Part shown: one piece after another, positions 1 through 64,000 of the stretch
How positions within the stretch are numbered: the first letter of the stretch is position 1
How the letters are laid out: each line of letters begins with the position of its first letter
Source: Psammoneis japonica
Lineage: Eukaryota
Assembly: GCA_008632985.1 (NCBI GenBank)
Contig: QPGO01000104.1
Location: 62,001-126,000, forward strand
Direction of reading: 5' to 3'
DNA length: 64,000 bases
The notes under the pieces: model-generated
What the model saw: only the letters and a program-made list of their open reading frames with translations
Told to the model about the DNA's origin: nothing
Databases searched by the model: none
Made by a program: the position numbers and the translations under genes

Positions 1-990
1 TGCACAGACAAACATCGCCATTGCCAAAAAAACACAGCCAATGCAGAGCACAAGATTTGTCATGGCTTCCATGCTTGCTCTTTTGCAATGCTTTCAGGAG
101 ACACATGTTTTTGCCTTCTTTGCAAATTTGTTTTGCAGCTTGCTCCCACACACCACACTCAATGCTGTTGTCGTCAACACAGAAAAGTCTCTCCCCAAGG
201 GGCATTTGCACCATGTTTTGGCTGGCATGCTCCAACCCAAAAAGCCACTGCACAATGAACAGCAGCAGCTAGGCTGAGAATGACAAAGCAAGCTGGCCAA
301 CTTTTTTAAGCTGAAGCTCACAACCTGCAGCCACACGACGAATTGTGAGTGCAGCACACACAGCAGCATGCTGGTGCTTTCATCGACAGGAGCAAGAAAA
401 AACTGACAAGACAATGGCTTGAAGTCTTCAACAGCAAACACAATCAGAGCACATTGGCCAGAGCCAAAAGCTGCAACAGGGTGCCATCTCAGCAGACATG
501 ATTGTGAAAGAACGCAACTTGGCTGCTCCCATTGCAACATGCGCAGATCCACTGCAGCAGTTTTCTTTGGCTGCTGGTGTGTGATGATGGCATAAAGCCA
601 AGCAGCAATGCACAAAACAAGGCACTTTTTGTGACTGGATTGACTTGTTTCAGATCAACAGAAACTTTCAATTGAGCAAAATTTGGACATGGGACAACAG
701 AAAGGAGCACAGTGAGAGAAGAAGCTCAACTTTGCTTTGCACCCACCAACAACTTTTTCAGATGACTTTGCGGCTGCCCCCACCCTGTCTCCCACAACAT
801 GTAACTGAAGACAAAGAGCAAGCTGTCATCAAGGATTGCATTGGTGATTGGTTGATTGTTGGTTGAGGGACTCTGGGCAGAGCATGAGGCTCGTGTTTCT
901 CGCTTCCAAAATCATCCAAGAAACCTTGTCGAGGTTTTGAAGCATCGCACGGACCAAACATGGGTGCAAATCCGTGCGAAGCCGATTCTG
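1..990. other. TpA-depleted, TG/CA-rich island A (degenerate repeat/TE-derived DNA, left end outside window)
   Basis: Only about 4 TA dinucleotides by eye in ~990 bp (~270, 307, 593, 802). CpG is also scarce. Overlapping ORFs are Cys/His-rich and almost Tyr-free. Confidence 0.8.
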
Positions 991-1338
991 GCGTTATGAA
1001 TCTCGTTTGCATGTTTTGCAATGTATACTTGACACTACTTCCTGTCCGCATCATTTCGATGGTCGAACGTCTTCTCATCAACTTCGCAGCTTTGCCGATG
1101 ACTGCCCTAAAAACTTTCTACGTTTTTGGCCCGGATTGCTCCCCAGGATGCGGGTGTTACCATAGTGTAGTTAATTGTTATTCTACGAACGGTCGATTTG
1201 AAATGCAGCTTTTTCCGATGAACTTCCATGAGTCGGCTCTTTAGTCGCAGTTTAAAGCGATTTCTGAACTAGATCTGCATCCAAGAGAAATCAAAAGCTC
1301 TATATCACATTTCTATATAATCGAGTTGTTCTCATTGT

Positions 1339-2071
1339 TTAGAACAATCCAAAGAACTTCTTCTTATCGTCTCCTCCCTTCTTGAAATCATTGACATTGG
1401 GAGCCTTGTAGTTTTTGGAAAACTTGGGTGCGGCTCCCATGGCGGATTCCGGTCCTCGCTTGGCACGGCTGCCGCTCCAGTCAAGGCCTTCCCCAAAGCC
1501 CAGAACGGAAACGGATTGTTCCTTGCGGTAGCCGCCGGCGGCGTACGCCTTGTCGCTCGCCAACCATGTTTTCTTGTTGCGGGCATTCTTGACATCGGAA
1601 TTGTCCCAAGATCCTCCGCGTTGCATGTACTGTAGCATTTCAAGAGCATTGTAATACAATAATTGGTGTAAGAGACGTCTCGCGATTATAAAACGCAGAT
1701 TCATCGTTACATCCAATCAATCATATTCTTCTACTTACAGGAATATCTTCCTTTCGGATCTTTCCGGATTTCAGTTTTTCTTTGGCATTAAACATGGGCA
1801 TGAGATGCGTCGCTTCGCCTCGCTCCATGGCTTCTTGAAAGGATTGCATAGATCTTGACTTGAAACCTCTTGGTCCCAAACCACCCAAGTTTCCCGGTCG
1901 CAGACGCTTTCGTTCTTCTTCCTTGAATTTCTTGTAACTTTCGGGAGTAAAGCCATCGGGAACATATGCAAAGAGCGCCGTACTACTACGTGTTGGTGAC
2001 GACGACGATGCAGTAAACCCACTCGATACGCCAACAAGAGCAGCAAAAAGAGCAATGCAAACAGTCTTCAT
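1339..2071 (-). CDS. Plastid-targeted conserved hypothetical protein, 2 exons (2071-1739, 1629-1339)
   Basis: Signal peptide MKTVCIALFAALVGVSSG|F followed by a Ser/Thr-rich transit peptide. A GT-AG intron at 1738-1630 joins ...KEDIP|YMQRGGSWDNSD... in frame. Ends KKKFFGLF. Confidence 0.85.
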
Positions 2072-11591: not shown

Positions 11592-11706
11592 TTTGTTTTT
11601 GGCGCTGATTTTCGTAGAGTAATGTGAGATGGTGCTTACCAAGATGCAATTTTTAGAATTTATGAGCACAATGAGTATTTCTCTTTAGCTTTCATTCATT
11701 CCTCTT

Positions 11707-11798: not shown

Positions 11799-12339
11799 GG
11801 CGAGTCTGACTCCGCACTCGATCCTTTCACTTCCGGCGCCCAGAGAAATCCACTCTGAGCACTTCTACCGACCGGCATGTTATGGTGCGCCCGAACGGAT
11901 GTCTGCTGCAACAGCGCAGCTCATTGCCTTGTGTGTTGTGTCATCGACATGAGGCCTTCCTCTCGATTGAAAGAACACAACATAGGACATCAAAATCAAT
12001 GATTTCCCGTCGTCTCCTGCGATCCCATTCCCGTTTCCCTCGCTTTTGCCATGCCAATCATGACAAGATTGAGATCCACATCCATTTAATCCCGCACATC
12101 CTTTGAGAAAATTCTGAGTCGCGAATCAAAACACACATGACATGATGATAAAAACTGACGACTCGCGATCCCGTCACTCGTGCGAAACTAATCCCGTTTG
12201 CCTATGTTGTGAAACTAACCACGACTGAGACCCATCCTTTAGACATGACTGCGCAATCACTGTGATGTCGCAATGAGCGTTCAGGCGTTTGACATGTCGC
12301 CGACGAACATCGAAGCCAGCTCAATGAAGAGTTTAAACA

Positions 12340-14010
12340 GCACAGCTCACGAGATCACCGGTTGTGGCATTGCTGGCAAGTGAAAAAAGCCAGCTGCCAG
12401 CGTGTGCTTTCAAGCAAACTGCTGCTGCAAGCCGAGATGAACATCAAGCTTGCCTCCAACTGGACACATGTCAGGGGGCATTGTGTCACCTTCAGACTTT
12501 TGAAGGAGCCTGCAAAAATCACCTCCAGACTTTTGAAGGAGCCTGCAAACCTCCCAAGACCCTGCTGCCCATTGTCAGCAAAACAGGGGGCTCGCCCAAG
12601 ACTCTCTGTGGGGAGTCAGCTGATGAGCGCCTTCGTGCTTGTCAGGAGGGCAAGACCAAGATCCCAGTGGCATGAATTGTTGTTGCTCATGAGAGCCAAG
12701 AGGTGCTGATGTGGAGGTGGACAGCACTCAAAGCAATGGCCACAATGCCTTTGCAAAGATGACAGCCAGGGCCCCTCACCTTGCCACTTGGCCTGACTCC
12801 TGACGCTGTGCCGAGACCTTGGCCGCTGATGACGCCAAGGCTTGGGGTGCAATTGCAGGCATCATTGCATGAATGAGAGCATTTGTGCTGGGTTTGCATC
12901 AAGTTTTCTCAGAACAACCATGATGGCAGGGCCACCTGCTGCACTGAAACCTGCGCAACAATTTTGTGGGCCCCAAGGCAACAAAATGTGGGAATGATGA
13001 TGCCAGCGCTGCTGAGAAGTGCTCTCCACATCACTCCCCTGCATGGCAAATGCCACAACAGCTGGAGCCCTGCACCAACATCCAAGTCTTGAAGAACTCA
13101 AGGGCGGGAAATCCCTTGTTTTGGGAGGCATTTTGGAAATTTCACAGGAAAAATGGCCAAGGTGAGAAAATGTTTTTTACAAATGTGAGCGCCACTCACA
13201 GAAAAACACTCAAACAGCTTTTGAACAGAAATGCAACAATGGCTGAAATGCATTTTTGTTGAGTGCAATGGAGGTGGAGAGGTGCCCAACTTTCTTCACA
13301 TTGTTTGCACAACGTGTTGTCTTGTTTGGACATTGAGTGCAGAACACACAGGGATGTTTTTCCACAGTTGTGCCACAAACAACTGAAATGTTGGCTGGGT
13401 CTTTGATGCTTTTTGTGGGTGTGTGTCAAAAAACAAGGGAATTTCCACCATCAAGGAATGCGATTGTGCCAGCATTGATGAGTGCTCCAAGGTGCACCAC
13501 CTCCTGCTTGTGAGAGAGTCCATGTCATCAAGAGGAGAACAAGGGTGCTGAGCCCGGCTTGGCCAAGGGGCGCGCAAATCATGGCTGGCACAGTGCTTTG
13601 TGCAGCACAACTTCAAAACACATGCCTGTCTTGTTCAAGGACTTTGTGAGATGGCCCAAGCCAAGCAAAGAGAGTCAAACCCCCCTCTGCACTGTGGTTC
13701 TCAAAACTGGCACAAGTGTGAGTGTGATGATGTTGAGGGCAAGCACTGCCATCCTCACAAAAGGAGTGCTGCAAGACAACTTCTCACGATGCAGCAGAGG
13801 CTGAGAAGAAGCTCCAGCAATGTGCAACCCCACAGACAGACCAAAGACAAGTCATCCAAGGCCGCCAATGCCAAGAACGCTTGGCAGATTGAGGTTCTTG
13901 CCAACGCTGCTGCCCCACCGCTTTGTGTTTCGTGTTTCAATCACGACGCAGCTCACATTGAAAAGATCAGAGCGACAATTCAACGAGTCTTCCACAAGAA
14001 TCTTCATCAG
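12340..14010. other. TpA-depleted island B (degenerate repeat/TE-derived DNA)
   Basis: About one TA (~13178) seen in ~1.67 kb. Strong TG/CA excess. Contains a 33-bp tandem duplication at ~12487-12549. Confidence 0.85.
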
Positions 14011-14244
14011 TTCTAAAGAGTCAAAATGGCTGATGACTCCCTCCACTGCAAACAGTGTGCAGATGTAGCGGCAGAGCAGACAACAGCAGGATCGTCTTCA
14101 TCGCTCGTCTCGGCGCTTTTACCGTGAATTGCATCAAAGATGCGTGAGGCGCGCGGGCAGACACATTTTTTCTGTCGAAACGCACGCGCTATCAATCTCA
14201 ATCTCTGGAAATCGCCTCTGAACAACATCGCTTGGAACATCACC

Positions 14245-26478: not shown

Positions 26479-26479
26479 G

Positions 26480-27955: not shown

Positions 27956-28205
27956 GCAATATTTTCCACCACTTGTGCAGGATTTACACGGAACAGAGTT
28001 GAGTGACATGATGTCTCAATTCGGAGAAAAGCCAATCGAAATTCGAAGCTTGTGATTGGTGTGTAAGAGTCCGCGATGCTGATTCCCACGTCTTTCCCGC
28101 GCCATCACAAAACACGAAACAGAAACGTGACTCAAAATGGCAGGATGAGCGTTATCGCCTCACAAAACAGAAAAATAAAGAATAAAAAACACGACTACAA
28201 GCATC

Positions 28206-41331: not shown

Positions 41332-41919
41332 CCAAAACGAGGGTCACTGCCACCGCGCGTGCAGTGACCCCCCAAAACGAGGGTCACTGCAGCTGCGTTA
41401 AATTCTACGTGTTTGTACCAGGAAAATGTACCTCCAACCTATCCGGCAGGCGTGAGTAATATTTTACTACAAATTGCAAGACAATTGCGCGATTCACGTG
41501 CCCGAAGGTGGAATATCGTTGCCCGAAGCAACATTCTCCCTTCGCGCAGATGTCAATTCTACGTATGATGTGGTATCAAAATTTTCATTTTGGTCGTCTA
41601 AATCGTCCCAGTCATTTCATCAAATGACCTTGTGGTACTCTCCTACGTGATCTACGCAAATCGGAGCTTCGGGCTGGCTGGTACATTTTCTACAGGCTCT
41701 ACGTGCGCGAAGCTCGAATTTCAACAATCACCCTTCGGGCACGTGAATCGCGCAATTGTCTTGCAATTCGTAGTATGTACGAGAAAGAGTTCGTTGGGGC
41801 AGGCGAACAACATCACTCTACGATGCGACTGGTACAAAATCTACGTAAATGCACAGACACGCTCTGGAGCATGTCTGTGCAAATTCGAGCTCGTAAATAA
41901 TAAGCAGGGATATCGCATA

Positions 41920-44900
41920 CAACATCATGACCACGATCGGGCACCGAACGCACAAACGACAAGCGATGGAGTGTGGGCATCTCCAGCAGTTTTGCATGAG
42001 TCACAAGTGGTGAGGTGCAATTCCTCCACAGGAACATTGCCAGAGCAACAAAGGGTGTGTGCCATCTCTTTGTCCAAAGTGGGCTGAAAGAAGTGTTGTC
42101 TCAGGCTGTTTTCCGCATGTGGCTCCAATTTTCTCACATCCTCGCTGTCAAAGCCAGCAAGTCATGAACAACAATCGCGCTTTGCACCTGCTTGAGTGTG
42201 GCAAGATTTTGCAAATGGGCAGCACTGCTGTGGTGGTTGTGCTGTTCCCACCTGTGGTGCACTGAGGAGAAGGTCATGTGTCTCTCAACACCAGAGTGCC
42301 AGCACAACAAGATGCTCCTCATGCAGGAAAAGAAGGGGTGGATGATGCAAACAATGTGGGCTCTCTGTGGTTCAAAGGTTGCGTGAAAATGCATCTTCCA
42401 TGATGAAGCTGCACAGCTTGAGAGGCAACTCAGCAACACCCCACCTGCCAGGCATTTTGAAAATTTGTCATTTGTCATTTCCGCTCAACAGCAGCTTGTG
42501 CAGCAGCAAGAGCTCTTTTTTTTTCTGGGCGATGCACCGCACAACGTGGAGGAAAACAAATGCAGCTTGCCCCCCATGCTTGCATCAACAAAAGCAGTGG
42601 CAGTGCTGAGCCCTGTTTGATGGAAGTCAATTTTGTCCATTTGTCAACAGGGAGATTGTGGCAAGTGTTTGGAGTCTCTCAACAAGGAGGTGGTGTTCAA
42701 GATCTGTGCCAGAGACCACAAGCCAAAGGCTCTTGTTTCCTGAAAAGAGCTGTGGGGGAGGATTCATCAAAACACATCACATTGTCCTGTGCATTGCAAG
42801 CACAAGGCACTCTGCTGCTTGTGAGGGGCTTCTCAATGATGCTTTCAACATGATCATCCACAGTTTCTGTCATTTTGTTCTGGAGAGCATTGGCAAACAC
42901 AAGCAAAACAACCAGGTGAACATTTGAACGACATTTTGTTGTCTCTTTGTTTTGGGTGCAAGGGACTGCAATTTTCAAACAGAAGAGCTTGGTGTCAGTT
43001 CATTGCTCCACAGATTGCACCAGAGCACAGCTGGGCCAAGTCACCCAGCTTGACAGAGCAAGAATCACATGCAGCCACAACTCCAGCAGATGTGTTCCAG
43101 CCCCCCAGGCAGGACCTCACAGTGCTGCTGAGGTGCAACATTTGAGCACAGGGGATTGACTTGGTGCAGAAACTGTGCAGATTTCTGTGCAAACAATTGC
43201 CCAATTTTGGTTGAATTGGGGGAATGAATTGCAAACTCTCAAAACTGCATCTCAACAAAAAATGGCTCCATGCCACACTTCAAAGCTTGCATGATGGCCC
43301 AAAGCATTGCAAGTCTTCATTTTTAGCTGACAACACTGCACTGAAGTTTGAGAAGAGAGGCAGAGGAGAAATCATCGTCACACACAAAAACAGAAGCAAC
43401 CACAGAGCAGCCATGCAGCGCGCCTGCTCTGGCCTCAAAGCTGCCACAATTGACAAGACATTTTGTGCCTCTCATGCCACAAAAGGTGACAAGGTTGCAA
43501 ACAAAATGTTTGATGCATTTCAAGCCAAAAATCAGGACAAGCCATTTAACAAATTGGAACCCAAGGGCACAACACATTTTAGCAAGCACTTGTCAGATGA
43601 GCCCATCATCCATCAGCATGGCAATCCTGACAAGGAGCTGATGGGGGTTGATGCCAAGCAGCAAATTCTTGGCACAGAAGCAAAAAAATGAAGTTTCCCA
43701 AGCACCCTGACTGGGAAGATGAGGGCAAGTGGTGCACAAGCCTCTCCGCAGCAGCGACATGGCAAAGGCTGCTGGCAAAGCCAGCCTGCTAGCATGGAGC
43801 ACATGGACAAAAAAACTTTCCCTCTGGCCCAATGTGTTTTTTCAGAACATGTTTGAGCAAAGAGCAAAGCACCATTCTTGTGTCAGATGGAAGTGCAATG
43901 TTGAGAATTGAAAGTGAGGCATTTGCATGTGACACAGAGATGTTGTTTCTTGCTCTCTGGCTCTGCAGCACAGTTGTCTTTTGTGATGAACAACGGCACT
44001 CTTTAGCAGCATTGCCAGATTTTAATGAGTGCCATGGCTCCTTTTAATGATGCAACCAATGGCTTTGTGATTTGTTCTACAAGAATTTGGAAGCTGCGTG
44101 GTGTGAGTCCAAGACAGTGGATTTGTGTGGACTTCTTTTTCCACCAAACAAAACATCTTGTCTCTTTCATTTGTGCTGTGCTTTTGCAGACAATGTGGAA
44201 AAGGAACTCCACAAACACACATTTCCATGGAGAATCTGGTGTGAAAGCTCAAGGCAAGTTGTTTTCATTGAACAGGACATCTTCAATGCTTTTGCACAAG
44301 TTGAGCAGTGAGATGACATTTTTTCTCAGGAAAATTGCCAGAGCAACACAACCAATGTACACCATCTTTATCCAGAGTGAAATTGTTGTTCATCAAGAAT
44401 CTTTTGTCTGGATGTTGTGGCAGCCTTTCTTAAAAGAAATGTTGTCTCAGGCTCTTCCTGCTCCATGACATTTTGGACACAGCTCCAACTTTCTTGTTGC
44501 TGTCAAAACTGGTGATTCACAAACAACAGGTGCCATGGGCTGCCCTCCACTTGAATGCAGTGAGCTTTTGTAAATGGATTTTGTGGTGCTGCTGCTCCTG
44601 TGGTGCATTGAGGATGAGGTTGACACAACATGTCGATGCAACATGAACTTCCACCACATGCAGTGAAAAGGAAGTGAGTGCCACAAACAGCGTGAATGTC
44701 AAGATTGAAAGGGAATGACAAGGCATCCTTGATGAAGATGCTGGGGTTAAGAAGTGACTTTTAAACACCCCACCTGTGAGGCATTTTGAATTTGTCAATG
44801 ACAGCTTGCTCAATCACAAGAGCCCCTTTTGCTTCTTTTTTTCCCAGATGAAAAACCCAGCAGATGCGGACAAGAAAAAATGCAGCTCATTCCTGCTTGC

Positions 44901-44990
44901 ATCAACAAGAACAATGGAAGCACTGAGCCCTGTCAAACAGCAGTTTGTTTCAGTTGTTGTTCAACAGGATTGTCATGAGGGTGTTTGGAA
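41920..44990. other. TpA-depleted island E containing two diverged copies of a ~1-kb unit (~42000-42953 and ~44300-45350)
   Basis: No TA seen from ~41915 to ~43320. Collinear shared blocks include attgccagagcaaca, tgttgtctcaggct, aacaccccacctg and tgcttgcatcaacaa. Confidence 0.85.
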
Positions 44991-45348
44991 TCTCGAGGAG
45001 GTGTTCAGGATCTGCCGGAGACTACAAGCTCAAGGTTGTTGCCTGAAAGAGGAGCCACGTGGAGGACGCAGCGAAGTGTGCCATCTTACAGCACCAATCA
45101 CGTGCATTACAAGCATTCGAATATTTTTGAAAATCAGGACATGGTGGCGGGTTCAATCGAATTTACTTATTCAGGCGACTTGTGAAGGGCTTCTCAACAT
45201 TCCACATGAACTATTGGGCGTTATTTTACTCTCTACTAGAGAGAGGGCGTTACTTGCAAACACAAGAAGTTCTTGAACAAGGAATCTCGGATGCAGCTCT
45301 CGACAAAACTAGGTAAACATTTGAGTAATATCTCGCTATCTCTTTGTT

Positions 45349-46398
45349 TTAAGCGCTCTGTAGATTTCGTCGAAGCGTGAACCGAGTCAACCGGCTGCCA
45401 TGGCCTTTCCCCCCCCTTGCTCCATTCTTACACAACTCTGGCTTATTGGTCAACATCCAAAATAAAAAGTCGGCATTGTGGCTTGACCGAGCAAATGCAT
45501 GCGACCACAACCCCAACGGAACAAGTCTCGGCGATCGTACAAGGTGTCGTCCTGCCTTGTTCATGCTGTAGTAGCAGTTCATTAAGACTTGTGTGGTATC
45601 ATCATCAGTCCTTCCAGACAATAATGAAAATGACGTCTCTCCGATTTCTTGTACAGACGTAATTAATTTGGGACAATTGTCGACATTTAGCACTTGCAGC
45701 TTTGACAATAGTAATATCGCTTTTGGTATCTCAACAAGACGAGAGCAAGACGATAGCTTCAAAACTTCCAGGTTATCCAGGTCGCCGATTGTACTTGATA
45801 ACGTTCGAATATTGCTGCAACCAGTTAGGTCTATTTCAGATAGCTCCGATAGCTGACCAATCGCATTGGGGAGGCCTGACAAGAGCTCACAAAAGTTCAC
45901 CTTTAGCCGATTCAGACGACGACACGATCCAAACTCCACAGGCAGTTCCTTTAGACTTTCACAGCGACTCAGTGTCAGCTCTCTTAAATTTTGGAGATTG
46001 CCAATCTCAGACGGCAATTCGTTCAATGCCCCACAGCCAACAATGGACAGGCGGCGCAAATTCTCACCAAGAACCTGGAATGTCTCTTGAGGCAGCTCTT
46101 GCAACCGTGGACAGTCCACGAATTGCACCTCTTGCAATTGCTCGAGCTGCACGATTTCAGGAGAACAACTCTGAAAATTGCTGCAATTCGATATACAAAG
46201 CGTTTCCAAATGGCGCAACAAGACAATTTCAGGAGGCAACTCTATCAAACCACGACAGTTCTTTAGAGTGAGTTTTGTGCAGTTTGCCAAGCCAGTTTTG
46301 CGTGTGTGCAACGTCGCATCAACATGACGATGCAATCGAATGGGCTGCAAGCCCATGGCCTGAGCAAGAGCAAGAATAAAGCGTTGAGAGCGATCCAT
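45349..46398 (-). CDS. Leucine-rich repeat protein (LxxLxLxxCxxLxxLP repeats)
   Basis: 349-aa ORF with ~8 LRRs of plant NLR-like type. C-terminal N.AGR.L...PLGLW..AF motif. Confidence 0.85.
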   Translation of the reverse strand: MDRSQRFILALAQAMGLQPIRLHRHVDATLHTRKTGLANCTKLTLKNCRGLIELPPEIVLLRHLETLCISNCSNFQSCSPEIVQLEQLQEVQFVDCPRLQELPQETFQVLGENLRRLSIVGCGALNELPSEIGNLQNLRELTLSRCESLKELPVEFGSCRRLNRLKVNFCELLSGLPNAIGQLSELSEIDLTGCSNIRTLSSTIGDLDNLEVLKLSSCSRLVEIPKAILLLSKLQVLNVDNCPKLITSVQEIGETSFSLLSGRTDDDTTQVLMNCYYSMNKAGRHLVRSPRLVPLGLWSHAFARSSHNADFLFWMLTNKPELCKNGARGGKGHGSRLTRFTLRRNLQSA

Positions 46399-46749
46399 AC
46401 TGCACGGGGCACTTATTTTCCGTTTGTGGTTTGCAGCATTTCGGTCATGATCGATCTCTTATCAGCACAACTGTTGATGGGCTGAATAAACAGCGCAGCA
46501 GCCATCAGCCGCAGCGGGACTGTAATGTGGAGATGGTCGATTTCATTCGTGCGTTCAAGTCGTGTTTAAAATTTGAAAAATTTCGGTTCAATTTCGACGT
46601 TTGCGTAAAAAACATACGAAATTGACCAATCCAAACAATCATCACGTCTCACAGTGATGGAGGTCAGTGAGAGAACGGAGGTCACTGCGCGCATTGTATT
46701 TAGATCTTCCATCTTATTGTCCAAGGCAGTCTTGCACTCCTTAATCTGT

Positions 46750-49700
46750 GCAATGGCCATGTCTGGTTGTGTCCAGTGTGCATTCAAGAGGGCTTCATGG
46801 GTTTGAGCTCTTTGACTTCCCAATGGTTTTGTCCCCTTGAGAGAACAAGACCCGCAGGCTTGCACCACACATGACTGAAAGCAACAACGAACATCTTTGA
46901 CATCCTTTTTTGGGCAACTGCACTGAGCCACAGTGCAAGCTGAGCAGCAAACTCCAGCCCATTTTGTCGGCTCCAGAAAAGGTTTTTGACATGCAGGTTT
47001 TCATTCACAAGTGCCTCACTTGCCAGCTGAGCCAAATGAGTGCCTTTTGGCACCGTTTCCTGACAATCTTCATTTGGCATGGGGGGCAGCATCAACTGAC
47101 ACACCACCAGTGTCCTTCCAATCTTGATTCGCTGTTTTGGAGGATGCATGCAGAGTCTTGCCACTTGAATCTTCATTGAAGTGCTTGCCGGCAGATGGCA
47201 TGGCTGCTTTTAAAGATGTGCCGGCGAGCAATGGCAGCCGCAATGTTTTGTCAACAAGTTTGGTCTTTGTTCTGCAGCTGCACGTCGCCAAGTGGCAAAC
47301 ATTTGAATCTTGTAAAATTTGGAAAGGCCAACATGTGCACATGCATTTTCAAATTCTCTTTAGACTGCGGAATTTTCTGAGGGTTTTGTCAACTCGTCTC
47401 CACTCCGACCTCGTTTTGGAGCAATGGCAAAGAGAGGAGTTCAAGCCACATCACATGGTCAGGAATGGCATGCCCACACATTTTGTTTCTGTTTGTGACA
47501 ATGCAAACCTGCTGAGTCTTTTGGGGAGTTGTTTTCACCGGCATTCCGAAGGTCACCGCATCTCCCATGATTTGGGTTTGGCACTTTCATGCTGTGAGTT
47601 CCTTTGCTCGTCTGTTGTGGGTTGCTCCCCTCGGGCTCACAATCTGCTTTGTAAAAAGATTGTGAAGAGGCATTTCCCCTGGCACACCTGTTGAGCAAAA
47701 GCAACTGGCCTCTTTTTCCAATGCCAGCCCAGCTCACAACTTGATCATTGTGAGTCATGCATCTGCTGGTGAGCTTGACCACAGCAAGACTCACATTTGC
47801 CCAGTGCCTTTTCTGTCCAGGCATTGCACTGGACTTTCAGTGGCTCCAACTGTCTCTTTCCCAGCTGGCAAGTTCTAATGCAGACCACCATGGCCAAAAC
47901 TGGCAATTGTTGAAAAACACTCAGCACACATTCAAGGCAATTTGAGCTTGTCACTCACTGTCAATGTGCAGCAATGGCTTGTTCAATGACAAGAGCCCTT
48001 TTCAGTCTTTTTGTTGCATGAGGAACAAGTGATTGTTGATCTGAAAAGAGCAAGTGCAGCTCTTGTCTGCAGGGTTGTGACAAAGATGCTTGGAGTTTCA
48101 AAAAGACATTTGGAATCTGCTGAATGTCAACAAGCTCAAGAGGCAGTTGTGCCTGAAACAGGATCTGTGCCAAGGACGTGGCAATGCATGCCACCTTGTC
48201 TCATGCTTTGCAAGGTGCTCCACACCATTTGTGAAAATTGGCACATGTGCGGTGGCAGGTGAAATCAATTTGAGGCACTTTGGGCAACCACTTGGTTTTA
48301 CAACAAAAGGCTTCTCGATGTCATCCTCAGAGAGTGCTGACAAAGACAAAAGCAGTTGCTGAACAAGCAAGGGCTCTTGGTCACCACTCAACAAAACCAG
48401 GCAAAACAACTGCACAACACATTGTCATCTCTTTGTTTTGTGAAAGCAGGGGCCTGTGTGGTTTTCAAGTGGGCTGCCTCTTGTGCAGGAGAGTGTGAGC
48501 TGAGTCAACCAGCTGCCACAGTGTTTCTGCCCATTGCTCCACCCCCTTGTGTGACTTTGGTTTGTTGGTCAGCATGAGACCACAAACCCAACAAGAAAAC
48601 AAGTCTTGGCAATCACACAAAGCAGCATTGTCCAGCCTTGTCCATGCTGCAGCAGCAACTCATCAGAGCTTCTTCCAGACAACAGCAAAAATGATGCAGT
48701 CTTTTTGATTGCTTGCACACAGTGGGTGTGATCAACTTGGAGAAGTTGCTGGCACATTTGAGAGCAAGAACGAGGTGGCAGGTTCAAAACTTCCTGGTCA
48801 TTCTCCAGGTTGCTGGTTGTTTGACTTTCTAAAGCTGCAATTTTGTGGAGTGAACAAGTTGCCCCACACATCTCAATGAAAAACTGTCTTTCGCTCAAGT
48901 TCAGCATGTCAAAAAAGCTGGTCCAAGCAAAGAGGCCCTGTTTTCCTTAGTGTTCCAAAGATCTCTTCTGCAATGACAGTGAGAACAAATCATGGCACAG
49001 CAGATGTGGTCCATTTGATTGGCTCTGCCATTTTTGGGATCTAAGATGACAATCTGAAAAATGTTCTTGTGGGTCCATTGAGGAGTGGGAGCAATTTGTG
49101 GCTGCAAATGTTTGAGTGGCAGGGGTTGGGGACAACAGTGCCCCTGGCCCCACAAAACCACCATGAAAACAATCTACAGAACTTTGCAACTCACTTGTCT
49201 TGAAAACCTCAATCATTTGCACAAGTTCACTGGCCCGGTTTTGTGATGCAAAATGCACAATTTCCAGCCCAATCCATTTGTCGCATCATCAGGAAAAATC
49301 TCTCAAATCTGCCTCACTGTGAGAAGAGTCTCCTGAAGAGCTGGCTGGCACCAAACCTGGGTCACCTTGTTGTGCCACCTCATTGTGAGCACTCATGAAC
49401 TCACGGAGTGCAGCCCTCCTGTCACCTTCAACCATGTCGTCAGCACGTGTCAAGCCAATGCCCCGATGGCCTCAAAATCCCTTTGGCACCTGTTGAACTT
49501 CTTTGACATTGGTGTCCCCAGATGAGCAACTCAAGCACTCTGCAAGGGTGCCTTGTTGCTCTGAATGACGAAGTTCCTGAAGGAAACGCCCCCCACACCC
49601 ATGTGAACTCCGCTGTTTCGACAAACATTCTTTGGCCCAACCAGGGTTTCAATGTGCTCTTTGAGAACACTTTCATCTGCTGGGGGCAATTTTCTCAGTG

Positions 49701-50100
49701 TTGCAAGTTCCCCAAATTGACCCAAGTGAGCATCGCTCTTGGCAGCACCAGGAAACAAAATTTGCAGGGCAAACACTCATCGCTGCCTGGGGTTGAGTCA
49801 ATGAACTGTCGCAATGTTGTGTTGTGACCCTGAGATTGATTCTGGACCCAATGTGTCTGCAGGAACAGAAAGAAACAATGAAGATCCTCCCTTGTTGCCA
49901 CTTTTCTTCTCTGTGTCGACAACACAACAAAACAGTGACATTGTTGAGCGACAAGCAAATGGCGGGGACTGCGGAAAGCATGGTCCTCACAAAGACTTGC
50001 TTTCTTCTGCTCAGGGCGTGCCTTCCGTTCTCGGCTACCTTTCTCGGCTTTCTGATCCTCAAGCACCGAATCGACCCCCTTGAAATGCACCTGACGTTCG
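46750..50100. other. TpA-depleted island F
   Basis: About 12 TA in ~3.35 kb by eye. TG/CA excess. Bracketed by a ~50-bp diverged direct repeat. Confidence 0.85.
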
Positions 50101-50259
50101 TTCAACAACGTAAGGGGTTCAACGTGTCAAGCGAAATGATCGAAAAAAATTCGCACAGCACAATAATTTTGACGTTTTTGCGCAAAAAATCAGACGAAAA
50201 TTGACCAAACCCAAAACACACGTACATCAGAGGAGCACACAACACAACACAGATGCAAC

Positions 50260-56361: not shown

Positions 56362-56579
56362 GGTGTTTTTTTTGGGTGTCGTTTTTTGTGTGTCGCAAGG
56401 ATTTGTGACGAACGAACGAGAGCGTCAGAATGATACGCTGAGCGATTCCGTTTTTGTACATGAGAATAATAGGAAGAAGGGAATCATTCATTTCTCGAAC
56501 GATGCGAACCCTGCGGCGCGTGGAATGATGGCGCCATCACCGTGTATGTCGTTGGACCGATGGACGGACTTACTTCTTG

Positions 56580-58480
56580 TTGCCAGTGCGTGGTGTGCAC
56601 TGTGTGAACTGCACAAAGCAACAAATGTGAAGCTGTGACTTGTTTGAAGCACGCTTGCATGCAAATCCTCAGTGGGAAGTGACTCTCCTCTCTTTCTTCT
56701 CACATCATTGTGTGTGCTGCGTCCGTGTGTGTCTTTTGGAGCTCTCCTGCACCTCTGCTTGCTGCGCGCCTCTTTGCCTGAGATGACAAAACAAGGAGCG
56801 GTGGGCCCGACTTGCAGCAGCACTCCATGGCATTGACTCTGTCAGTTTGGGGCTTGTTTTCAACTTGCTAGAGTGTTTCACCTGATGAGCTGCCTGAGTG
56901 TGTCAACATGTCACAGCAAGAGAACAAACTCTCAACAGCGCACTGCAAAAGACGCTCCCCCAGCACTGTGGTCACACGCACCAAAAGCAACAAGGGCAGC
57001 CAGTTTCTCCACTCAGCTTTGCAAAAAGCCACCTCCCTGGGCAGCATCTTGTTCTAAGCACCTGAGTCAGCATCAATCAGAACATGATGTCATCATGACG
57101 GAAATGTCACCCACCCAATGAAAGCGACATGGTTGACATCACCTGTGACGTCATTGTGCAAAACCATCAAAACAAAGAACATCAAAAGACCTCTCCTGTT
57201 GGGGTCATTCTTCTCCATTGCTGTCAGTCTCCTGTTGCCATGTTCACTGTGCTTGAAGAAGAGTGCAAATGAAACAGAGTGAAGTGCAAAAAGCAAAAAT
57301 GTGAGATTGGATTTTGCACAATCACTTTGGGTTTGTCCAAATGAGTTCTCAATGGCCTAAATTTTCTGCACTGCTCCCACATGAGAGAGGCCTTTCAGAG
57401 AATGCAATCGTGACATCAGATTGTCCAGGTGCAATTGCTGTTGACACATGAAATGTCAGCATTGAACTCTGCATGATCGATCTAACTGACCTTCGCATGA
57501 ACTCACAATCAATGCACGATTGAGCACACAACAATGTGCAAGCACACACATGCACATTGTGCAACATGTGCAAGTTGTGTGGTGCACCATTTGGCCATTT
57601 TGCAAACACCTGAACCCCCCACGCACATGCGTGTAACAACAGCAACATCATCACATCATGACAGCCGCAAAATTGTGCCAAATCATGAAATGAAAATGGA
57701 GTTTTCTCTGCACCTCAAGAGCTGCCATGTGCATTTCTCCTGCGGCCTTTTGACATCAAGCTGACAAAACTCACCCCAGCTTGTGTCATTCTTGATCTCT
57801 TTTTGTTTTCCTTTGAGATTGTCAAGGGTGGGGCTGCCTGAAGCAGGCCACAGAGCGCCAACTGCCGCCAAACCGCCATGACACAATGCACACAATGCCA
57901 AGCACCGTTCTTTTCCAGTCAGCTGCCAGACTTGGGCCACCTGAAGTGCTGCCATGACACAAAGCACCAATGGCTGACTGACCCACTTTTTGCTGCCAAA
58001 CTTCCACACAGAGACTTGCTAGAAGCAGGTGGTAGATGAAGTTGTCAAGAAGGTTTTCTGACATCACTGAGAAAAAACTTGGCATCCTTGTTTTGTTGTC
58101 CACCACTTTTGTGTGAAGCAGCAGTGATCAGCTTTGTGCAAGGCAGCAGCGCTCGCTTTCTGCTCGCCACTGCAGCAGAGCCTTCAGCATGGCTTGTTGC
58201 TTTCACTGATGCCTCCACACATTTAATTCATTTCTCTGCCCAAACTTGCACCCCCTTGTCACTCAAGAAACTGAGTTTGATGTTCACTCACCCACTTTTG
58301 TCGGCGTGTCTCTCCAACCATTGTGCACACACATGATGGTGCTTAGAACTGCAGCATTCAGCAAGCTTGACAGATTTGTTGGGAAGGCTGATCCAGAGCG
58401 TAGTTCTAATGGCCATGGATTTTTGAAAAGCCTGTGAGCATCATCGTGGAGCGACCGCTTGCGCAGCATTTCTGGTGTGC
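56580..58480. other. TpA-depleted island G
   Basis: About 10 TA in ~1.9 kb, nearly all TAA/TAG. Abrupt switch to TA-rich DNA at ~58490. Confidence 0.85.
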
Positions 58481-61053: not shown

Positions 61054-61129
61054 AGAATAAGAGTCTAGACAAAAGGATCCCTGGCATGCGCTCATTCGGC
61101 CACTTCTAATTGACAATAAGTAATTTCCT

Positions 61130-64000
61130 CTTTCTCATTCTCTTTCGACACTCGACTGCCCGGACGGGCTTTGCACCGCCAGTTCCTCCTTCTCTCTCAC
61201 TTTTTTGCATGTGGCACATGGCTTAACACCAACCCCTGCAAACTAACCTGAACTTGCGTTGTCTTGGTGGTTCTAGACATGTTGTGATCTGTCAAATCTG
61301 GTTACTTCTCTGTTGGTCTCTTTTAGTTTTGCTTCATCTAGATTGCCCTTCCAAATGAGTTGTCCACAACATCAGTCAACATGACATTTTTTCTTACATT
61401 GACTTCACTTGTGGGTTCATTTTGTGCAAGCTGTGATCCACAATTTGCCTCTGGTCCTCAAGATGCTTCCCCAGCAAAAATGATCTGTAGATCCAGATGA
61501 CAAATGTTGGAAAACTGGGTGGGCCAATGAGGAACAAGTCACTGGATGAACAAACACCCACCCATTGCCAATTTGAGGCAGCAGATGAAGTTTCATTTCA
61601 ATGTTTCAACCGCCCAACTGCAGACACTCTGGGGGGTCCATGTCACCTGCAGCAGGAAAGATCCCTGCTTGGTTTGTGCAGGGTGCACAACGACACCATG
61701 CTGCTGTCTTTGTTCTGATTGCAGCCACAGATTGTGGCTCTTTCCACACACACACACAAAAACATCAACTCTCTGTTTTGTGTCTGTCACAACAGCTCTG
61801 CTTGGGCTTCTCTGCTGCCTCTCAACTTTCTTGCAGCTGCCAAAGAAAGTTGCAAAGGGTCAGTGCAGCTGGCGGGCAAGTTGTGCCAGCATGGCCCATT
61901 GAGAACATTTGCAGCCCCTGTTGGAAAACAAATTTTTGCACTGACACACTGCACCAGCAGAAGATTGTCAAAAAGCAGCTTTCTTGTCCATTTTTCATGC
62001 GCATTTTTTTCTTGGTCAGGTTGAGGGGGGAGCTTTTGTTGCTGCTTGCTGCACCCTTTGCTTGTTGTCTTTGCCTCTTCTCAAGCTTCTGAGTGCAATG
62101 ACCAATCAACAGAGCAAAACAAGATGCTGGTGGAACAAAAGAGCACCAAAGGGCCACAACATAAAGTGCAAAACTGTTGTCAAGCAGGCAGCCAGCCACA
62201 CAGCCAGTGCTGCATCATCAGCACATGTGCAGCATGCTCCAGTGCTGGGTGGAACCTTGTGCTGCTGAGCTGCAATGCTGGCAGCATTTTGTCTTGTGCA
62301 GGGCCATGTTTTCTGCTGCAATCAGGGGGGGGGGGACATTTGTTGTGGCACGCTCTGCAGAGAAACAACGCCCTTTTTTTGATGTTTTTTTCATGCAGAG
62401 GTGTGGGAGAGCTGGTGATCATGACCTTTCTGCAACCTTCTTTCAATGCCCAAAAAAATGCTTTGTGTGGCAAAAAAGTTGAGAAGTGAGGAGGGCTTGC
62501 CTTCGTGGAAAGAGGGGTGCGGGCCATTTGATCAACGTGCTCCCCAGCAAAATGCGTGCCCAGAGCTGGGGCAAAAAACAAGCAACCTCATCAGAGCGCG
62601 AAATGTGGTGATCCTGGCCACCCTTCTTGTGGGCAATTTTTAATGCCATTGCATGTAAAAATGCACACCCATCCTTTTGAGAGAGTTGTGTAGAACGTGA
62701 TTTTTTATTGCACATCACAGTGTGCCATTTTTCACCATGGGACCCCTCCTTCACCCATGGGACCCCTCCCTTGACTGTCAGAATTCCGTCACTTTTCACC
62801 TTTTGAAAGCGATGTTCACAACGTTTTAGTCAACAACAAATCAATGCCAATCATTGCGTTGCATTGATTTAAGAACCTCACATTGCACACACTGGCTCCA
62901 TTGCGTGCACTGGCTGGAAAACAAAAGGTTGTGTCACAAACCAATGATTCCTAAAACACTTCATCAAACCTCACAACTGTTGGCATTGAAACCCACTGCA
63001 TTGCTCATCCTCTTTCCATTGTCACACTGACAAAAGCCTCCGCTGCCTTTTCACACCGCAGCTTGCTCATCCTCTGCATCTGCACTCGTGTCGCTGCCCG
63101 CATCACTTTCCTCCTCCTCTTCCTCGCTGTCCTCGTCTCCTCTGTTCTTGTCCATTGCCTCTTCCTCCTTCTCCTCATCGTCACTTGAAAGCTCTGTCGT
63201 TGCCTGTGTTCTTGCCTCCTCCACCGGCTTTTTCTTTCTTTTCAATCCCTTGCCTCTTTCGTCAATCTTCCTTTTCTTGCCTTTGCTGTGCCATGTGTTG
63301 AACTGCATGCCCTCCTCACTGAACCTGTCTTTCTTTACTTCTGCCATCAGCTCGTTGAATCGCTTGATCCCTGCATCCTTCCAGGAGTCTCGTTGCCTCG
63401 ACGGGTCCGTGTGCTTGGGTGTTGGTTCCAACTCTTCCTCATCTTCATTGTCCGAACCTCCCCCTGCTGCAACAGTCTTGTCATGACGTGCCTTGTGCTC
63501 CCAACTCTTCCAGCAGTTCTCCAATGTCAACAGCACTGGAGCCTCGTCGCTCGCTGCAGCCAGACCGGTTGCCTTCGTCTCACCCGACTCCATCTTCCTT
63601 CTCCATGTGGTGGTGCTCTTTGTGAATTTCAGGATGTTTTCGCAGAACCAAGCACATGCTTCCTTGTTCTTGCGCTTGTCCTCCACAATCGTTGTCACTG
63701 TCTCCTCCCCCCAAGTTGCCAGGAATGGCTCTTCCTCTTCCGTGCGATCGTTCTTCTTCCTCTTCTTGCTCTTCTTCCCACATCCACCCTTTGCTGCCGG
63801 CTCCTTCTGACTGCGCATCTCCTCTGCTTCATTCTCTGTCAACACGACTTCAGCAAATGAAGGTGCAGCTGTGTTGAGCACAACTAAACTCAACATGCCG
63901 TGCACCACAAAACACTTGCCAGCCGTTGCATTGTTCTTGATCGCCTGAGTGACCGTGCTCCTTTTCGCGTTAATTGCATGCATGATGCACTTCTTTGCCC
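61130..64000. other. TpA-depleted island H (TE-derived, continues beyond window)
   Basis: Very few TA. CpG is depleted in ~61300-62500 but retained in 63050-64000. Confidence 0.85.
63051..63983 (-). pseudogene. Mutated transposon-associated-type ORF (SDEA..LL.LEN.W...PK.T...W...GI.RFNEL...V..DR family), Tyr-free
   Basis: 310 aa with no Tyr. I recall this motif from repetitive diatom/oomycete hypothetical proteins but have not verified it. Positions expected to be Tyr or Leu read TGC, CAC, TGT or CCA. Confidence 0.6.

Follow-up and report, generated by a model that had tools for sequence, protein, structure and literature searches.

Background

The closest described counterpart of the sequences reported here is in the rhizarian alga Bigelowiella natans, in which integrated giant-virus (NCLDV) and virophage DNA undergoes A to G and T to C hypermutation at TpA only (Mettrop et al., bioRxiv 10.64898/2026.01.13.699255, 2026). 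According to the text of that preprint, all GC-biased mutations of two viral regions fall on TpA and both products occur; in mutation-accumulation lines, 230 of the 231 de novo mutations in these regions were A to G or T to C (10.64898/2026.01.13.699255). It also describes clusters across the B. natans genome with TpA depletion and CpA and TpG enrichment, and cites reports that the ADAT2 of amphioxus and of trypanosomes acts on DNA (10.64898/2026.01.13.699255). The pattern has so far been reported only this once, in an alga unrelated to the diatom, a stramenopile, studied here; our literature search found no report of TpA-erasing hypermutation in diatoms.

Other processes resemble it in part. 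Fungal RIP likewise makes regional, dinucleotide-bound transitions, permanent disabling and compositional islands; as described, however, it turns CpA into TpA (C to T), making TA and AT-rich DNA, and it requires duplication and hits every copy, whereas in the diatom TA is destroyed, G+C is unchanged and an intact copy lies between mutated ones. In methylated DNA, CG decays to TG or CA through deamination of 5-methylcytosine (5mC), and a matching TG/CA gain accompanies CG loss in the island cores, but such decay is incapable of removing TA, and the CG-poor zone of the diatom is narrower than the TA-poor one. The tRNA adenosine deaminases ADAT2/3 and TadA convert A to I, which reads as A to G, and their natural target A34 follows U33, that is, a 5'-U-A context; a thymine modification at TpA would, however, leave an identical outcome in sequence. 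The footprints that APOBEC and ADAR enzymes leave in retroelements are context-bound clusters of transitions, driven by a deaminase, and they inactivate mobile DNA. These enzymes act on single-stranded cDNA or double-stranded RNA and leave strand-coordinated clusters in retrocopies, whereas the diatom islands are changed on both strands in bulk, in genomic DNA that stayed in place.

We analysed a stretch of 64,000 nt of diatom DNA (the window), for which a sequence-only reading had proposed eight islands hypermutated by an undescribed process, possibly a genome-defence system, targeted to repeats or silenced DNA. The process can no longer be called undescribed, since the same TpA to TpG/CpA signature occurs in the integrated viruses of B. 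natans, as the preprint presents them (10.64898/2026.01.13.699255). Our results establish that the TA loss in the window is real, directional, specific, dependent on context and regionally confined.

Eight islands nearly free of TA

Islands were called as stretches with no more than 2 TA per 300 bp, which yielded eight, together 18,366 nt or 29% of the window, with coordinates within approximately 50 to 210 bp of those given by the earlier sequence-only reading; the TA-poor islands are thus confirmed as real. Island 1 (1..1024) runs past the window start and has 5 TA (observed/expected, o/e, 0.07), with CG o/e 0.32 and TG+CA o/e 1.80. Island 2 (12217..14120) has 5 TA (0.04) and CG o/e 0.37; island 3 (26426..28064), directly upstream of a minus-strand myosin gene, has 4 TA (0.04); and island 4 (29699..32235), which stops at an N gap (32236-32453), has 10 TA (0.05) and CG o/e 0.36. 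The TA counts are 18 (0.08) in island 5 (41902..45108; CG o/e 0.19), 14 (0.06) in island 6 (46702..50164; CG o/e 0.28), 11 (0.09) in island 7 (56471..58401; CG o/e 0.38) and 13 (0.08) in island 8 (61340..64000), which runs past the window end. Pooled, the islands contain 80 TA against 1,246±27 expected from 200 mononucleotide shuffles, with CG o/e 0.33 and TG/CA o/e 1.73. The per-island ranges are 0.04-0.09 for TA, 0.19-0.44 for CG and 1.67-1.81 for TG+CA, and the rest of the window has 0.57 for TA, 1.02 for CG and 1.18 for TG/CA. Computed within the window, these ratios bear out the TA deficit and TG/CA excess that had been proposed for the islands.

At the island edges the TA-poor zone is wider than the CG-poor zone: over 13 edges, the outermost 250 bp have o/e ratios of 0.12 for TA and 0.65 for CG, as compared with 0.05 and 0.24 in the cores. 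In island 3, CG is normal (o/e 1.34) over the first approximately 200 bp and 0.24 in the core; myosin homology nearby begins only at approximately 25845-26076. In island 8, the CG ratio stays at 0.07-0.46 as far as 63000 and is 0.65 past that point. The CG depletion and the wider TA-poor zone are points that the sequence-only reading had not stressed. Of the 114 island ORFs that are 80 aa or longer, none has a credible Pfam match or carries a transposon or viral domain, and such domains were likewise absent from the 201 ORFs across the window that were submitted to Pfam.

TA sites have become TG or CA

As fractions of all dinucleotides, TA makes up 0.0406 of non-island but 0.0044 of island DNA, and CG 0.0551 and 0.0186, respectively; TG/CA is higher in the islands, at 0.2159 as compared with 0.1468. 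The combined TA and CG loss (0.073 of dinucleotides) nearly equals the TG/CA gain (0.069), and G+C is unchanged. When we applied solely TA to TG/CA (85%) and CG to TG/CA (70%) changes to non-island DNA in a forward simulation, its trinucleotide correlation with the islands rose from 0.73 to 0.94.

The direction of change could be read from two alignments, each with a non-island copy as reference for an island copy. The first concerns a tandem unit of approximately 2.3-3.1 kb containing an LRR gene. Its intact copy B (45349..46458, minus strand; Pfam LRR_14 at 1e-21 and others) lies between islands 5 and 6 with margins of approximately 240 bp, is spanned by a cDNA-like contig of run X2 (45332-46473), and has TA o/e 0.60-0.68 in the windows of 45001-46000 and 0.27 in that of 46001-46500. 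Island 5, which also contains repeat families D5-D7 and D11, carries copy A in degenerate form, together with the flank of copy B (42111-42827 against 44471-45133, 80% purine/pyrimidine identity). Island 6 carries a degenerate copy C, aligned over 48057-48820, where 48057-48755 matches 44951-45686 in purine/pyrimidine coding and LRR residues 290-321 align by tblastn to 48672-48571 (E=9e-5). Between copies B and C, the 12 TA of the gene copy became CA (10), TG (1) and GA (1), with none kept, and its 6 CG became CA (3) and TG (3). The second alignment pairs the right edge of island 2 (13980-14137) with its non-island paralogue at 10455-10611, whose 10 TA correspond to CA (4), TG (2), TA (2) and other dinucleotides (2). 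Over both, 17 of the 22 TA sites are now CA or TG and 2 are kept (Fisher p 1.3e-6 for TA loss), and 3 of the 14 CG sites are kept (0.004), as compared with 189 of 309 for the other 14 dinucleotides.

In bulk counts, conversion looks equal on both strands: the variance of the TG-versus-CA z-score per 300 bp is 1.37, against 1.44±0.10 in simulations with the strand chosen independently. Locally, the polarised TA sites gave 14 CA and 3 TG on the plus strand (p=0.013), a bias at odds with the bulk symmetry and for which we offer no explanation.

Neighboring bases matter. AA/TT shows no depletion, with o/e of 1.31 inside the islands and 1.17 outside them (AG/CT o/e 1.02), and conversion is thus specific for T at position −1; the same figures speak against the Pol-eta mechanism (WA to WG) that had been suggested. 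Conversion is almost complete at RTAY and weakest at TTAA. Survivors in island interiors, set against sites in the rest of the window, number 18 to 84 for TTAA and 16 to 136 for CTAA/TTAG, but 1 to 134 for ATAT, 1 to 147 for GTAC, 1 to 277 for ATAC/GTAT and 0 to 210 for ATAG/CTAT.

A hypermutated gene copy in island 8

On the minus strand of island 8, an open frame of 315 codons (63054..63998) extends up to the window end and belongs to an orphan family, with 186 homologues at E<=1e-3 and 4 at E<=1e-30. It aligns to these over residues 54-304 with no frameshift. None of its 315 residues is Tyr, whereas each of 18 homologues has 3-10 (P=4e-4 given a family frequency of 2.5%). In the four columns that are all Tyr in the 4 closest homologues, it has C, C, C and H; in every one of the 5 columns where 30% or more of the 18 have Tyr, that residue is replaced, by C, C, C, H and H. 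The destruction of Tyr codons that had been predicted is thus directly seen. The frame contains 3 TA against approximately 38 expected, and 39 CG against approximately 52. By its sequence, it is a dead copy, with four conserved Tyr lost and no selection. Together with the mass balance, the simulation and the paralogue polarity, the changes from Tyr to Cys or His uphold the earlier view that the islands arose by TA to TG/CA transitions on both strands, that 5mC deamination alone is insufficient, and that the change is opposite in direction to RIP.

A probable regional process acting on TpA

Taken as a whole, the evidence is probably best explained by a regionally confined, DNA-level TpA mutation process in non-genic nuclear DNA of the diatom. 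The islands would be such DNA, decayed tandem LRR-gene copies and the dead orphan-family copy included. Within them the process would convert T:A to C:G only in TpA, nearly exhausting TA and leaving TpG or CpA depending on the strand hit, at a rate set by the flanking bases, from almost complete at RTAY to least at TTAA. It would be far faster than background decay, because the island-8 gene lost approximately 92% of its expected TA while its frame remained open and could still be aligned. CG would be stripped from the island cores by another process, in part separate from the first and most likely 5-methylcytosine deamination at CpG, with TG/CA as the common sink of both. Transcription units, introns included, would be spared, and chromatin or transcriptional state may set the island borders.

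By analogy, this would be the same kind of process as in B. natans, where, as far as the preprint describes it, TpA alone is hit, TpG or CpA results according to strand, the action is regional, and long-term clusters are poor in TpA and rich in CpA and TpG; we count the transcriptional silence of its giant-virus target as a further likeness to the islands. For the giant-virus region the preprint gives a mild depletion, with a Rho TpA of 0.45, whereas the depletion is near-total in the diatom over more than a quarter of the window, and the B. natans targets are viral or transposon-like, whereas the identifiable island contents are dead host-type genes. The main text of the preprint makes no mention of CpG or of context, as against the CG decay and the preference for RTAY over YTAR seen here. 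Rates were measured in B. natans; in the diatom, the mutation rate and current activity are inferred. The agent is presumably enzymatic, either an ADAT2/TadA-like deaminase that acts on adenine in polynucleotides and requires a 5' T, or a modification of thymine at TpA that mispairs with G, two routes that are inseparable from sequence alone. Around myosin relatives, 79 metagenome loci totalling 615 kb were scanned with a looser filter, which let through only 10 of 2,876 windows, none of them depleted in CG; the eukaryotes sampled in this set thus do not share the trait generally.

Genes, introns and TIR elements retain TA

Island borders follow gene borders within approximately 10-250 bp, and four introns, defined by spliced contigs, have 39 TA in 532 nt against approximately 44 expected. 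Multi-copy TIR elements (39772..41775) adjoin island 5 and offer contrast material outside the islands. One, at 41465-41775, is 311 bp long with 44-nt arms that are 98% complementary; a second family, with 22-nt TIRs, lies between 39772 and 41320. Both elements noted earlier as having ordinary TA were recovered (TA o/e 0.67-0.79). TA-rich elements stand directly against islands, with a border width below 100 bp. In run X1 (public reads in a k-mer assembly, from one sample of one study that is possibly the source of the genome assembly itself), summed depth at the TIR elements, measured only across 40500-42302, is 800-3100, against 51-68 in genes and islands, and some contigs skip 41465-41773.

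These borders bear on the reading that nothing is targeted: TpA would be hypermutable genome-wide, with transcription-coupled repair or another transcription-tied protection restoring genes, and the islands would be the unprotected remainder. The fit of island to gene borders, the TA kept by introns, the TA-poor zone that reaches into CG-normal promoter-proximal edges, and island contents that resemble ordinary dead host DNA all agree with it. The TIR elements beside island 5 do not, being non-genic yet normal in TA, though possibly young or transcribed; nor does the ordinary rate of 3.5e-10 that the preprint gives for B. natans outside the two regions, intergenic DNA included (10.64898/2026.01.13.699255). 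We think this reading rather unlikely; it and targeted action are inseparable from the window alone.

Duplicated sequences outside the islands

A RIP-like trigger, by which repeats are sensed and their copies mutated, would make the islands former repeats that have diverged past recognition. The decayed tandem LRR copies of islands 5 and 6, the paralogue of the island 2 edge, and the 186 relatives of the island-8 frame detectable in public data would suit it. The middle LRR copy, however, is intact and has normal TA, yet the duplicated flank that belongs to it (44471-45133) is mutated; the tandem paralogue genes at 4660-5515 and 7434-8283 (71-74% identical) are both normal in TA; the multi-copy TIR elements are untouched; and islands 5 and 6 lie in single-copy-depth bins of run X1. 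The hypermutated giant-virus region of B. natans is single-copy as well, according to the preprint (10.64898/2026.01.13.699255). Such a trigger is improbable. The depth of islands 5 and 6, the want of transposon or viral domains among the island ORFs and the TA kept by TIR elements also leave the claim that the process is targeted to repeats unsupported. A simple defence against repeats fits poorly, because the targets are not recognisably foreign and multi-copy TIR elements retain TA.

Read support for the islands

An 8,923-nt contig of run X1, at depth 68, spans 41884-50805, from which it departs by 1 gap and 9 letters, and includes islands 5 and 6 entire at a depth equal to that of genes. 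This excludes an assembler or polishing artefact. The two islands are thereby reproduced by an independent k-mer assembly, but the run is not an independent biological replication. Some long-read platforms make systematic errors at methylated motifs, and no sequencing platform is recorded for the assembly or for run X1; in silent chromatin, a modified base at TpA and at CpG might then be misread as TG/CA. That this explains the islands is very improbable: the same TA-free sequence was obtained over 8.9 kb, approximately 95% misreads on both strands would be needed, the borders with abutting TA-rich elements are sharp, and many transversions and indels separate the island copies from their paralogues, which marks these copies as old and genuinely diverged. 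The Bigelowiella data, moreover, are from Illumina sequencing, according to the preprint (10.64898/2026.01.13.699255).

It is hardly credible that the composition is native, in foreign or functional sequence that never had TA, or selected against TATA boxes or TA-targeting transposons. Our analysis yielded no evidence in favor, although TA-duplicating elements are present (the element at 41465-41775 begins with TA); the island copies derive from TA-containing host genes, mass balance and simulation fit conversion, the dead gene, with four conserved Tyr gone, is not subject to selection, and, on population-genetic reasoning, per-site selection across 18 kb of spacer is implausible. ADARs favor a 3' G, and CTAG and TTAG, which have one, are among the least converted contexts. 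ADAR-type A-to-I editing of RNA followed by reverse transcription and reintegration is thus extremely unlikely, even though ADARs prefer a 5' U, as stated in the preprint (10.64898/2026.01.13.699255), for the islands are tandem genomic copies with flanks rather than retrocopies, and in bulk their two strands are hit equally, without clusters coordinated by strand.

Six differences between the window and run X1 are listed within islands, among them CA/TA at 49275 in a CTAT context, TG/CG at 44068 and an adjacent TG/CA double at 42840-1. Only the one at 49275, of the 9 in all, would restore a TA. The three island differences named here are the only hints of recent activity.

TA-free islands in the window

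The large open reading frames (ORFs) of the window are of ordinary eukaryotic kinds. Pfam identified a myosin, a P-type ATPase, adenylate kinase, SOUL, LYR, an Fe-S assembly protein and an LRR protein, and another matched NAD-dependent epimerase/dehydratase of the GDP-mannose 4,6-dehydratase type. All named proteins related to the myosin come from diatoms (Thalassiosira, Pseudo-nitzschia, Trieres, Attheya and Phaeodactylum), and its top match has only 59% identity. We therefore assign the window to the nuclear genome of a diatom, a close relative of which is absent from the protein collection.

Islands were delimited by sliding dinucleotide statistics and TA-density segmentation. The segmentation recovered all eight of the nearly TA-free, TG/CA-rich islands named in the sequence-only reading, whose coordinates were off by approximately 50-210 bp: island 1 at 1-1024, island 2 at 12217-14120, island 3 at 26426-28064, island 4 at 29699-32235, island 5 at 41902-45108, island 6 at 46702-50164, island 7 at 56471-58401 and island 8 at 61340-64000. 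A scaffold gap of 218 N (32236-32453) abuts the end of island 4, which may run on further. The islands sum to 18,366 nt, or 29% of the non-N window, and the stretches between them are mostly genes. They contain 80 TA dinucleotides, compared with 1,246±27 in 200 shuffles, giving a pooled observed/expected ratio (o/e) of 0.06, a 16-fold depletion. Across islands, o/e ranges from 0.04 to 0.09 for TA, from 0.19 to 0.44 for CG and from 1.67 to 1.81 for TG+CA; the corresponding values in the non-island window are 0.57, 1.02 and 1.18. The original observation of TA loss with TG/CA excess thus stands, with the necessary addition that CG is also depleted. The TA borders of the islands are sharp, with a width below 100 bp, and the action is confined to discrete regions beside normal DNA.

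Support from public reads

We compared the window with contigs assembled from k-mers of two public sequencing runs, X1 and X2; a third run, X3, yielded no contig on it. Run X1 contains 88% of the sampled words from 40500-46500; no RNA runs were listed among those matching this segment. One X1 contig (8,923 nt, depth 68) spans 41884-50805, departing from the window at 9 letters and 1 gap. It takes in islands 5 and 6 entire, its depth matches that of the adjacent genes (51-68), and the bins of both islands are at single-copy depth. The single listed difference that restores a TA is at position 49275. Because this contig reproduces islands 5 and 6, an assembler or polishing artefact is excluded. 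X1 is one sample from one study, perhaps the assembly's own source, with its platform unrecorded, and so does not amount to independent replication. Two features argue against a base-calling artefact, namely the many transversions and indels by which islands differ from their paralogues and the TA-rich elements that adjoin islands.

Within islands 5 and 6, six differences between X1 and the window were listed, including one CA versus TA in a CTAT context, one TG versus CG, and one adjacent TG versus CA double change. This last is the outcome expected of two independent conversions at one ancestral site, an anecdotal case; the three together are suggestive, again anecdotally, of recent activity. 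In island 7, the summed depth of X1 contigs climbs to approximately 1,300 over 57328-57928, and one X1 contig has a 74-nt joint that 'goes back' from 57946 to 57873; this suggests that a portion of island 7 is multi-copy or that related TG/CA-rich contigs collect there.

Run X2 is cDNA-like, with four skips bounded by GT..AG or CT..AC, the canonical ends of introns, each crossed without break by a run X1 contig; for the three at 55.4-56.1 kb, extra letters between the two sides are possible. Its cover is approximately nil across most island bins, which does not count as evidence of silence.

Conversion rather than native composition

Relative to the rest of the window, dinucleotide frequencies in the islands change by -0.0362 for TA, -0.0365 for CG and +0.0691 for TG/CA, while G+C is unchanged (47.9% in islands, 46.6% elsewhere). 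When we simulated forward on non-island DNA, applying only TA->TG/CA at 85% and CG->TG/CA at 70% with random choice of strand, the trinucleotide correlation with the islands rose from 0.73 to 0.94. TA is normal in four introns (39 in 532 nt), which were taken from spliced X2 contigs and are run through by X1, so the contrast between islands and genes does not come from selection on coding sequence.

Only A after T is depleted in the islands, where o/e is 1.31 for AA/TT, 1.02 for AG/CT and 0.95 for GA/TC. Error-prone repair by Pol-eta, one of the mechanisms put forward from the sequence alone, would leave a WA->WG signature; with AA/TT higher in the islands than outside (1.17) and AG/CT at expectation, that signal is missing and Pol-eta mutagenesis is rejected.

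Direction of change in paralogous copies

At the nucleotide level, blastn self-comparison of the islands gave only 3 weak pairs, and tblastn with 105 non-island ORFs as queries found a single match there. Purine/pyrimidine recoding hides transitions, and blastn on the recoded sequence was required to reveal copies of the LRR gene; a reversed-sequence control scored up to 84, and we accepted matches above that score. Repeat finding, tblastn and recoded blastn agree in showing islands 5 and 6 to be decayed tandem copies (period approximately 2.3-3.1 kb) of a unit holding the intact LRR gene at 45349-46458 on the minus strand.

A first transition-tolerant alignment scoring was dropped for its high null scores (231±17-21). 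A stricter scheme with a reliability filter retained 271 of 862 columns between the LRR gene and its degenerate copy in island 6. None of the 12 TA in the gene was kept there: 10 read CA, 1 TG and 1 GA. Its 6 CG became CA (3) or TG (3), while 9/12 TG, 11/14 CA and 12/14 AA were kept. A second pair sets non-island sequence at 10455-10611 against the margin of island 2 (13980-14137); the 10 TA of the non-island member are replaced there by CA (4), TG (2) or another dinucleotide (2), or kept (2). These two pairs provide the polarised substitutions that the sequence-only reading had proposed tabulating, and they bear it out: pooled, TA became CA or TG in 17/22 cases and was kept in 2/22. CG was kept in 3/14 and became CA or TG in 9/14, and all other dinucleotides were kept in 189/309 (Fisher p = 1.3e-6 for TA and 0.004 for CG).

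A hypermutated gene copy in island 8

Positions 63054-63998 of island 8 hold, on the minus strand, a 315-codon ORF that is a hypermutated copy of an orphan-family gene. It was first taken for chance, since 15 of 200 dinucleotide shuffles contained an open frame of 315 aa. More generally, ORFs of 150 aa or longer number 13 in the islands, compared with 11.6 in dinucleotide shuffles; TA-free DNA lacks TAA and TAG and so yields long spurious ORFs, and ORF length in islands is no evidence of coding. An exhaustive HMMER search with this ORF found 186 relatives at E<=1e-3, including four at E<=1e-30 that align without a break over residues 54-304 at 35-45% identity.

The ORF contains no Tyr, while each of 18 aligned relatives contains 3-10 (family frequency 2.5%, P=4e-4). 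At the four columns that are Tyr in all four closest relatives it reads Cys, Cys, Cys and His, and where Tyr makes up at least 30% of the residues in the 18 relatives (five columns) it reads C, C, C, H and H. Judged at the level of codons, Tyr to Cys or His is exactly TAY->TGY and TAY->CAY. A Leu->Pro change at a CCA codon is consistent with CTA->CCA, and a Thr->Ala change at t|GCA is consistent with a TA across the codon boundary. The region retains 3 TA of approximately 38 expected but 39 CG of approximately 52, and its frame is open; TA had thus run out while the frame was still intact and the loss of CG limited, which indicates hypermutation rather than slow drift.

The listed members of the family (proteins P0122-P0271) are 89-442 aa long, mostly approximately 170-330, and share the motifs KR..Y.WFY.NVL, SDEAL.LL.LEN.W, KYT and GI.RFNEL. 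Pfam gave no credible match for 17 members, the one sub-threshold hit being MCM4_WHD (E=9e-4, under its cut-off). In a large protein collection the family profile scored 5 proteins, none informatively named, and a search with the member P0123 found 2; a scan of viral contigs with P0122 found no relatives. AlphaFold confidently predicts an all-helical fold (pLDDT 82.5), for which Foldseek found no PDB structure at E<=0.001 and VIA gave a best Z of 3.7.

Sequence context, strands and CpG decay

For each flanking context, we compared the TA surviving in island interiors with the TA elsewhere in the window. Survival is best at TTAA (18/84), CTAA/TTAG (16/136) and CTAG (4/73), middling at GTAA/TTAC (11/250), CTAC/GTAG (8/244) and ATAA/TTAT (7/294), and nearly nil at ATAT (1/134), GTAC (1/147), ATAC/GTAT (1/277) and ATAG/CTAT (0/210). 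Conversion is favoured by a purine at -2, a pyrimidine at +1, or both, the two effects being inseparable at a palindromic site.

Both products are present in the islands, which contain 1,948 TG and 2,015 CA in total. Counted per 300 bp, TG/CA shows no over-dispersion (var(z) 1.37, compared with 1.44±0.10 under simulated independent choice of strand). Against this bulk symmetry, the polarised sites are lopsided (14 CA versus 3 TG, p=0.013), an unexplained local bias.

Over 13 island edges, the outermost 250 bp have an o/e of 0.12 for TA and 0.65 for CG; the cores have 0.05 and 0.24. TA conversion and CpG decay overlap without coinciding, the TA edge being 100-300 bp further out than that of CG. 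Decay of CpG driven by 5mC resembles the islands in its loss of CG with gain of TG/CA, and would account for the CG part alone.

We rejected an ADAR or APOBEC footprint on retrocopies: the copies are tandem and in place, retain their flanks and are changed on both strands, and the dispersion that fits independent choice of strand leaves out the strand-coordinated clusters of ADAR. The 3' G preferred by ADAR marks contexts that outlast RTAY (CTAG and TTAG/CTAA), with the same reservation that -2 and +1 effects are inseparable at palindromes.

Targets and repeats

Pfam gave no credible match for any of the 114 ORFs of 80 aa or more in the islands, and none of the 201 ORFs submitted from the whole window had a transposon or viral domain. 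The identifiable contents of the islands are the LRR-gene duplicate and the orphan-family gene.

The elements with terminal inverted repeats (TIRs) at 39772-41775 have normal TA, and summed depth over 40500-42302 is 800-3100, compared with approximately 60 for single-copy sequence. They include a multi-copy cluster at 39772-41320, adjoining a TA-free island and itself normal in TA, whose inverted repeats (GGGGTCATAAAATGTACCC type, 20-28 nt) are at 39772, 39981, 41229 and 41293. A MITE-like element of 311 bp lies at 41465-41775; it begins with TA and has 44-nt TIRs that are 98% complementary. Several X1 and X2 contigs connect 41464 directly to 41774, leaving the element out, so that it is either an insertion polymorphism or missing from other copies of the enclosing repeat. 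TA is also normal, in contrast to the decayed LRR copies, in both of the tandem paralogous gene segments at 4660-5515 and 7434-8283, which are spaced 2,774 bp apart with 71-74% identity and match B_lectin weakly.

Fungal RIP, in which CpA->TpA makes an excess of TA, runs in the opposite direction to the islands, which lose TA and gain CA/TG. It also depends on duplication and affects all copies, whereas here the intact LRR gene is flanked by mutated copies on both sides and the multi-copy TIR repeats are unaffected, which argues against a RIP-like homology trigger. We ruled out RIP as the family on both direction and spared copies.

Relation to TpA hypermutation in Bigelowiella and possible mechanism

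The sequence-only reading presented the process as undescribed, a claim that fails, as the same signature is reported in the chlorarachniophyte Bigelowiella natans in the main text of a preprint by Mettrop et al. (bioRxiv 10.64898/2026.01.13.699255). In mutation-accumulation lines, that text places 231 of 302 nuclear single-nucleotide mutations in an integrated giant-virus (NCLDV) region and a virophage region; 230 of the 231 are A->G or T->C, and all such GC-biased mutations are on TpA. Regional rates are approximately 6e-7, approximately 1000-fold over background, and occur in some lines only. The islands share the transitions, the restriction to TpA, both products and the regional confinement; the targets may differ, being viral in B. 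natans, and the contents identifiable here, in islands 5, 6 and 8, being an LRR duplicate and an orphan-family gene. Our search of the openly accessible literature found no reports of TpA loss in diatoms. In a survey of other eukaryotes, a loose filter let through only 10 of the 2,876 windows from 79 metagenome loci (615 kb), none with CG depletion and all from loci of 54-58% G+C; many loci were short or transcripts, making the survey a weak negative.

At TpA, the islands have undergone T:A->C:G transitions by a fast process that is confined to regions, depends on context and spares transcription units. They are best read as a second, far more saturated instance of the Bigelowiella hypermutation, in a diatom. 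From the tight sequence rule and the limitation to part of the genome we infer an enzyme. A polynucleotide adenine deaminase requiring a 5'-T would be an attractive candidate: ADAT2/3 and TadA act on A34 of tRNAs, which follows the invariant U33. The preprint likewise puts forward an ADAT2-like enzyme that deaminates adenine in DNA, and cites DNA activity of some ADAT2 proteins (10.64898/2026.01.13.699255). Alternatively, a thymine modification at TpA could mispair with G; its trace would be identical, so sequence cannot choose between the two. The process may be aimed at silent chromatin, or may be general and corrected in transcribed DNA, and the window fits either. 'Genome defence' is best treated as a hypothesis.

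More broadly, diatoms (Stramenopila) and chlorarachniophytes (Rhizaria) might share a chromatin-directed enzymatic editing of DNA, by adenine deamination or thymine modification, at TpA of the RTAY type wherever DNA is transcriptionally silent, which erases every TA of a gene copy before its frame breaks and has rewritten approximately a quarter of this diatom's genome; we offer this tentatively, the odds being somewhat against it. If true, TpA editing would be a widespread equivalent, among eukaryotes, of RIP and APOBEC, and a major unrecognised influence on the composition of genomes across the SAR supergroup (stramenopiles, alveolates and rhizarians).

TpA-limited regional hypermutation is otherwise known from one alga in that one 2026 preprint, and a second, saturated case in an unrelated lineage means that it is probably no single-species curiosity. 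Beyond the preprint's main text, which mentions neither CpG nor flanking context, the islands add the preference for RTAY over YTAR, a partial independence from CpG decay, the involvement of ordinary dead host genes, and the sparing of whole transcription units, introns included (10.64898/2026.01.13.699255). TA-free islands can also mislead gene prediction, repeat annotation and the dating of pseudogenes. Diatoms are a place to seek the enzyme: several species are transformable, with methylome maps. Histone marks have also been mapped in diatoms (PMC4504042).

Other features of the window

At its 5' end (32821-33679), the FG-GAP gene has a TA o/e of 0.19, a CG o/e of 1.25 and a mild TG/CA excess, a pattern that differs from the islands and possibly reflects codon usage. 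The same FG-GAP repeat gene carries a perfect 24-nt tandem repeat of 3.1 copies at 35027-35100, which sits in a larger array of 24/60-nt periodicity at 34967-35238.
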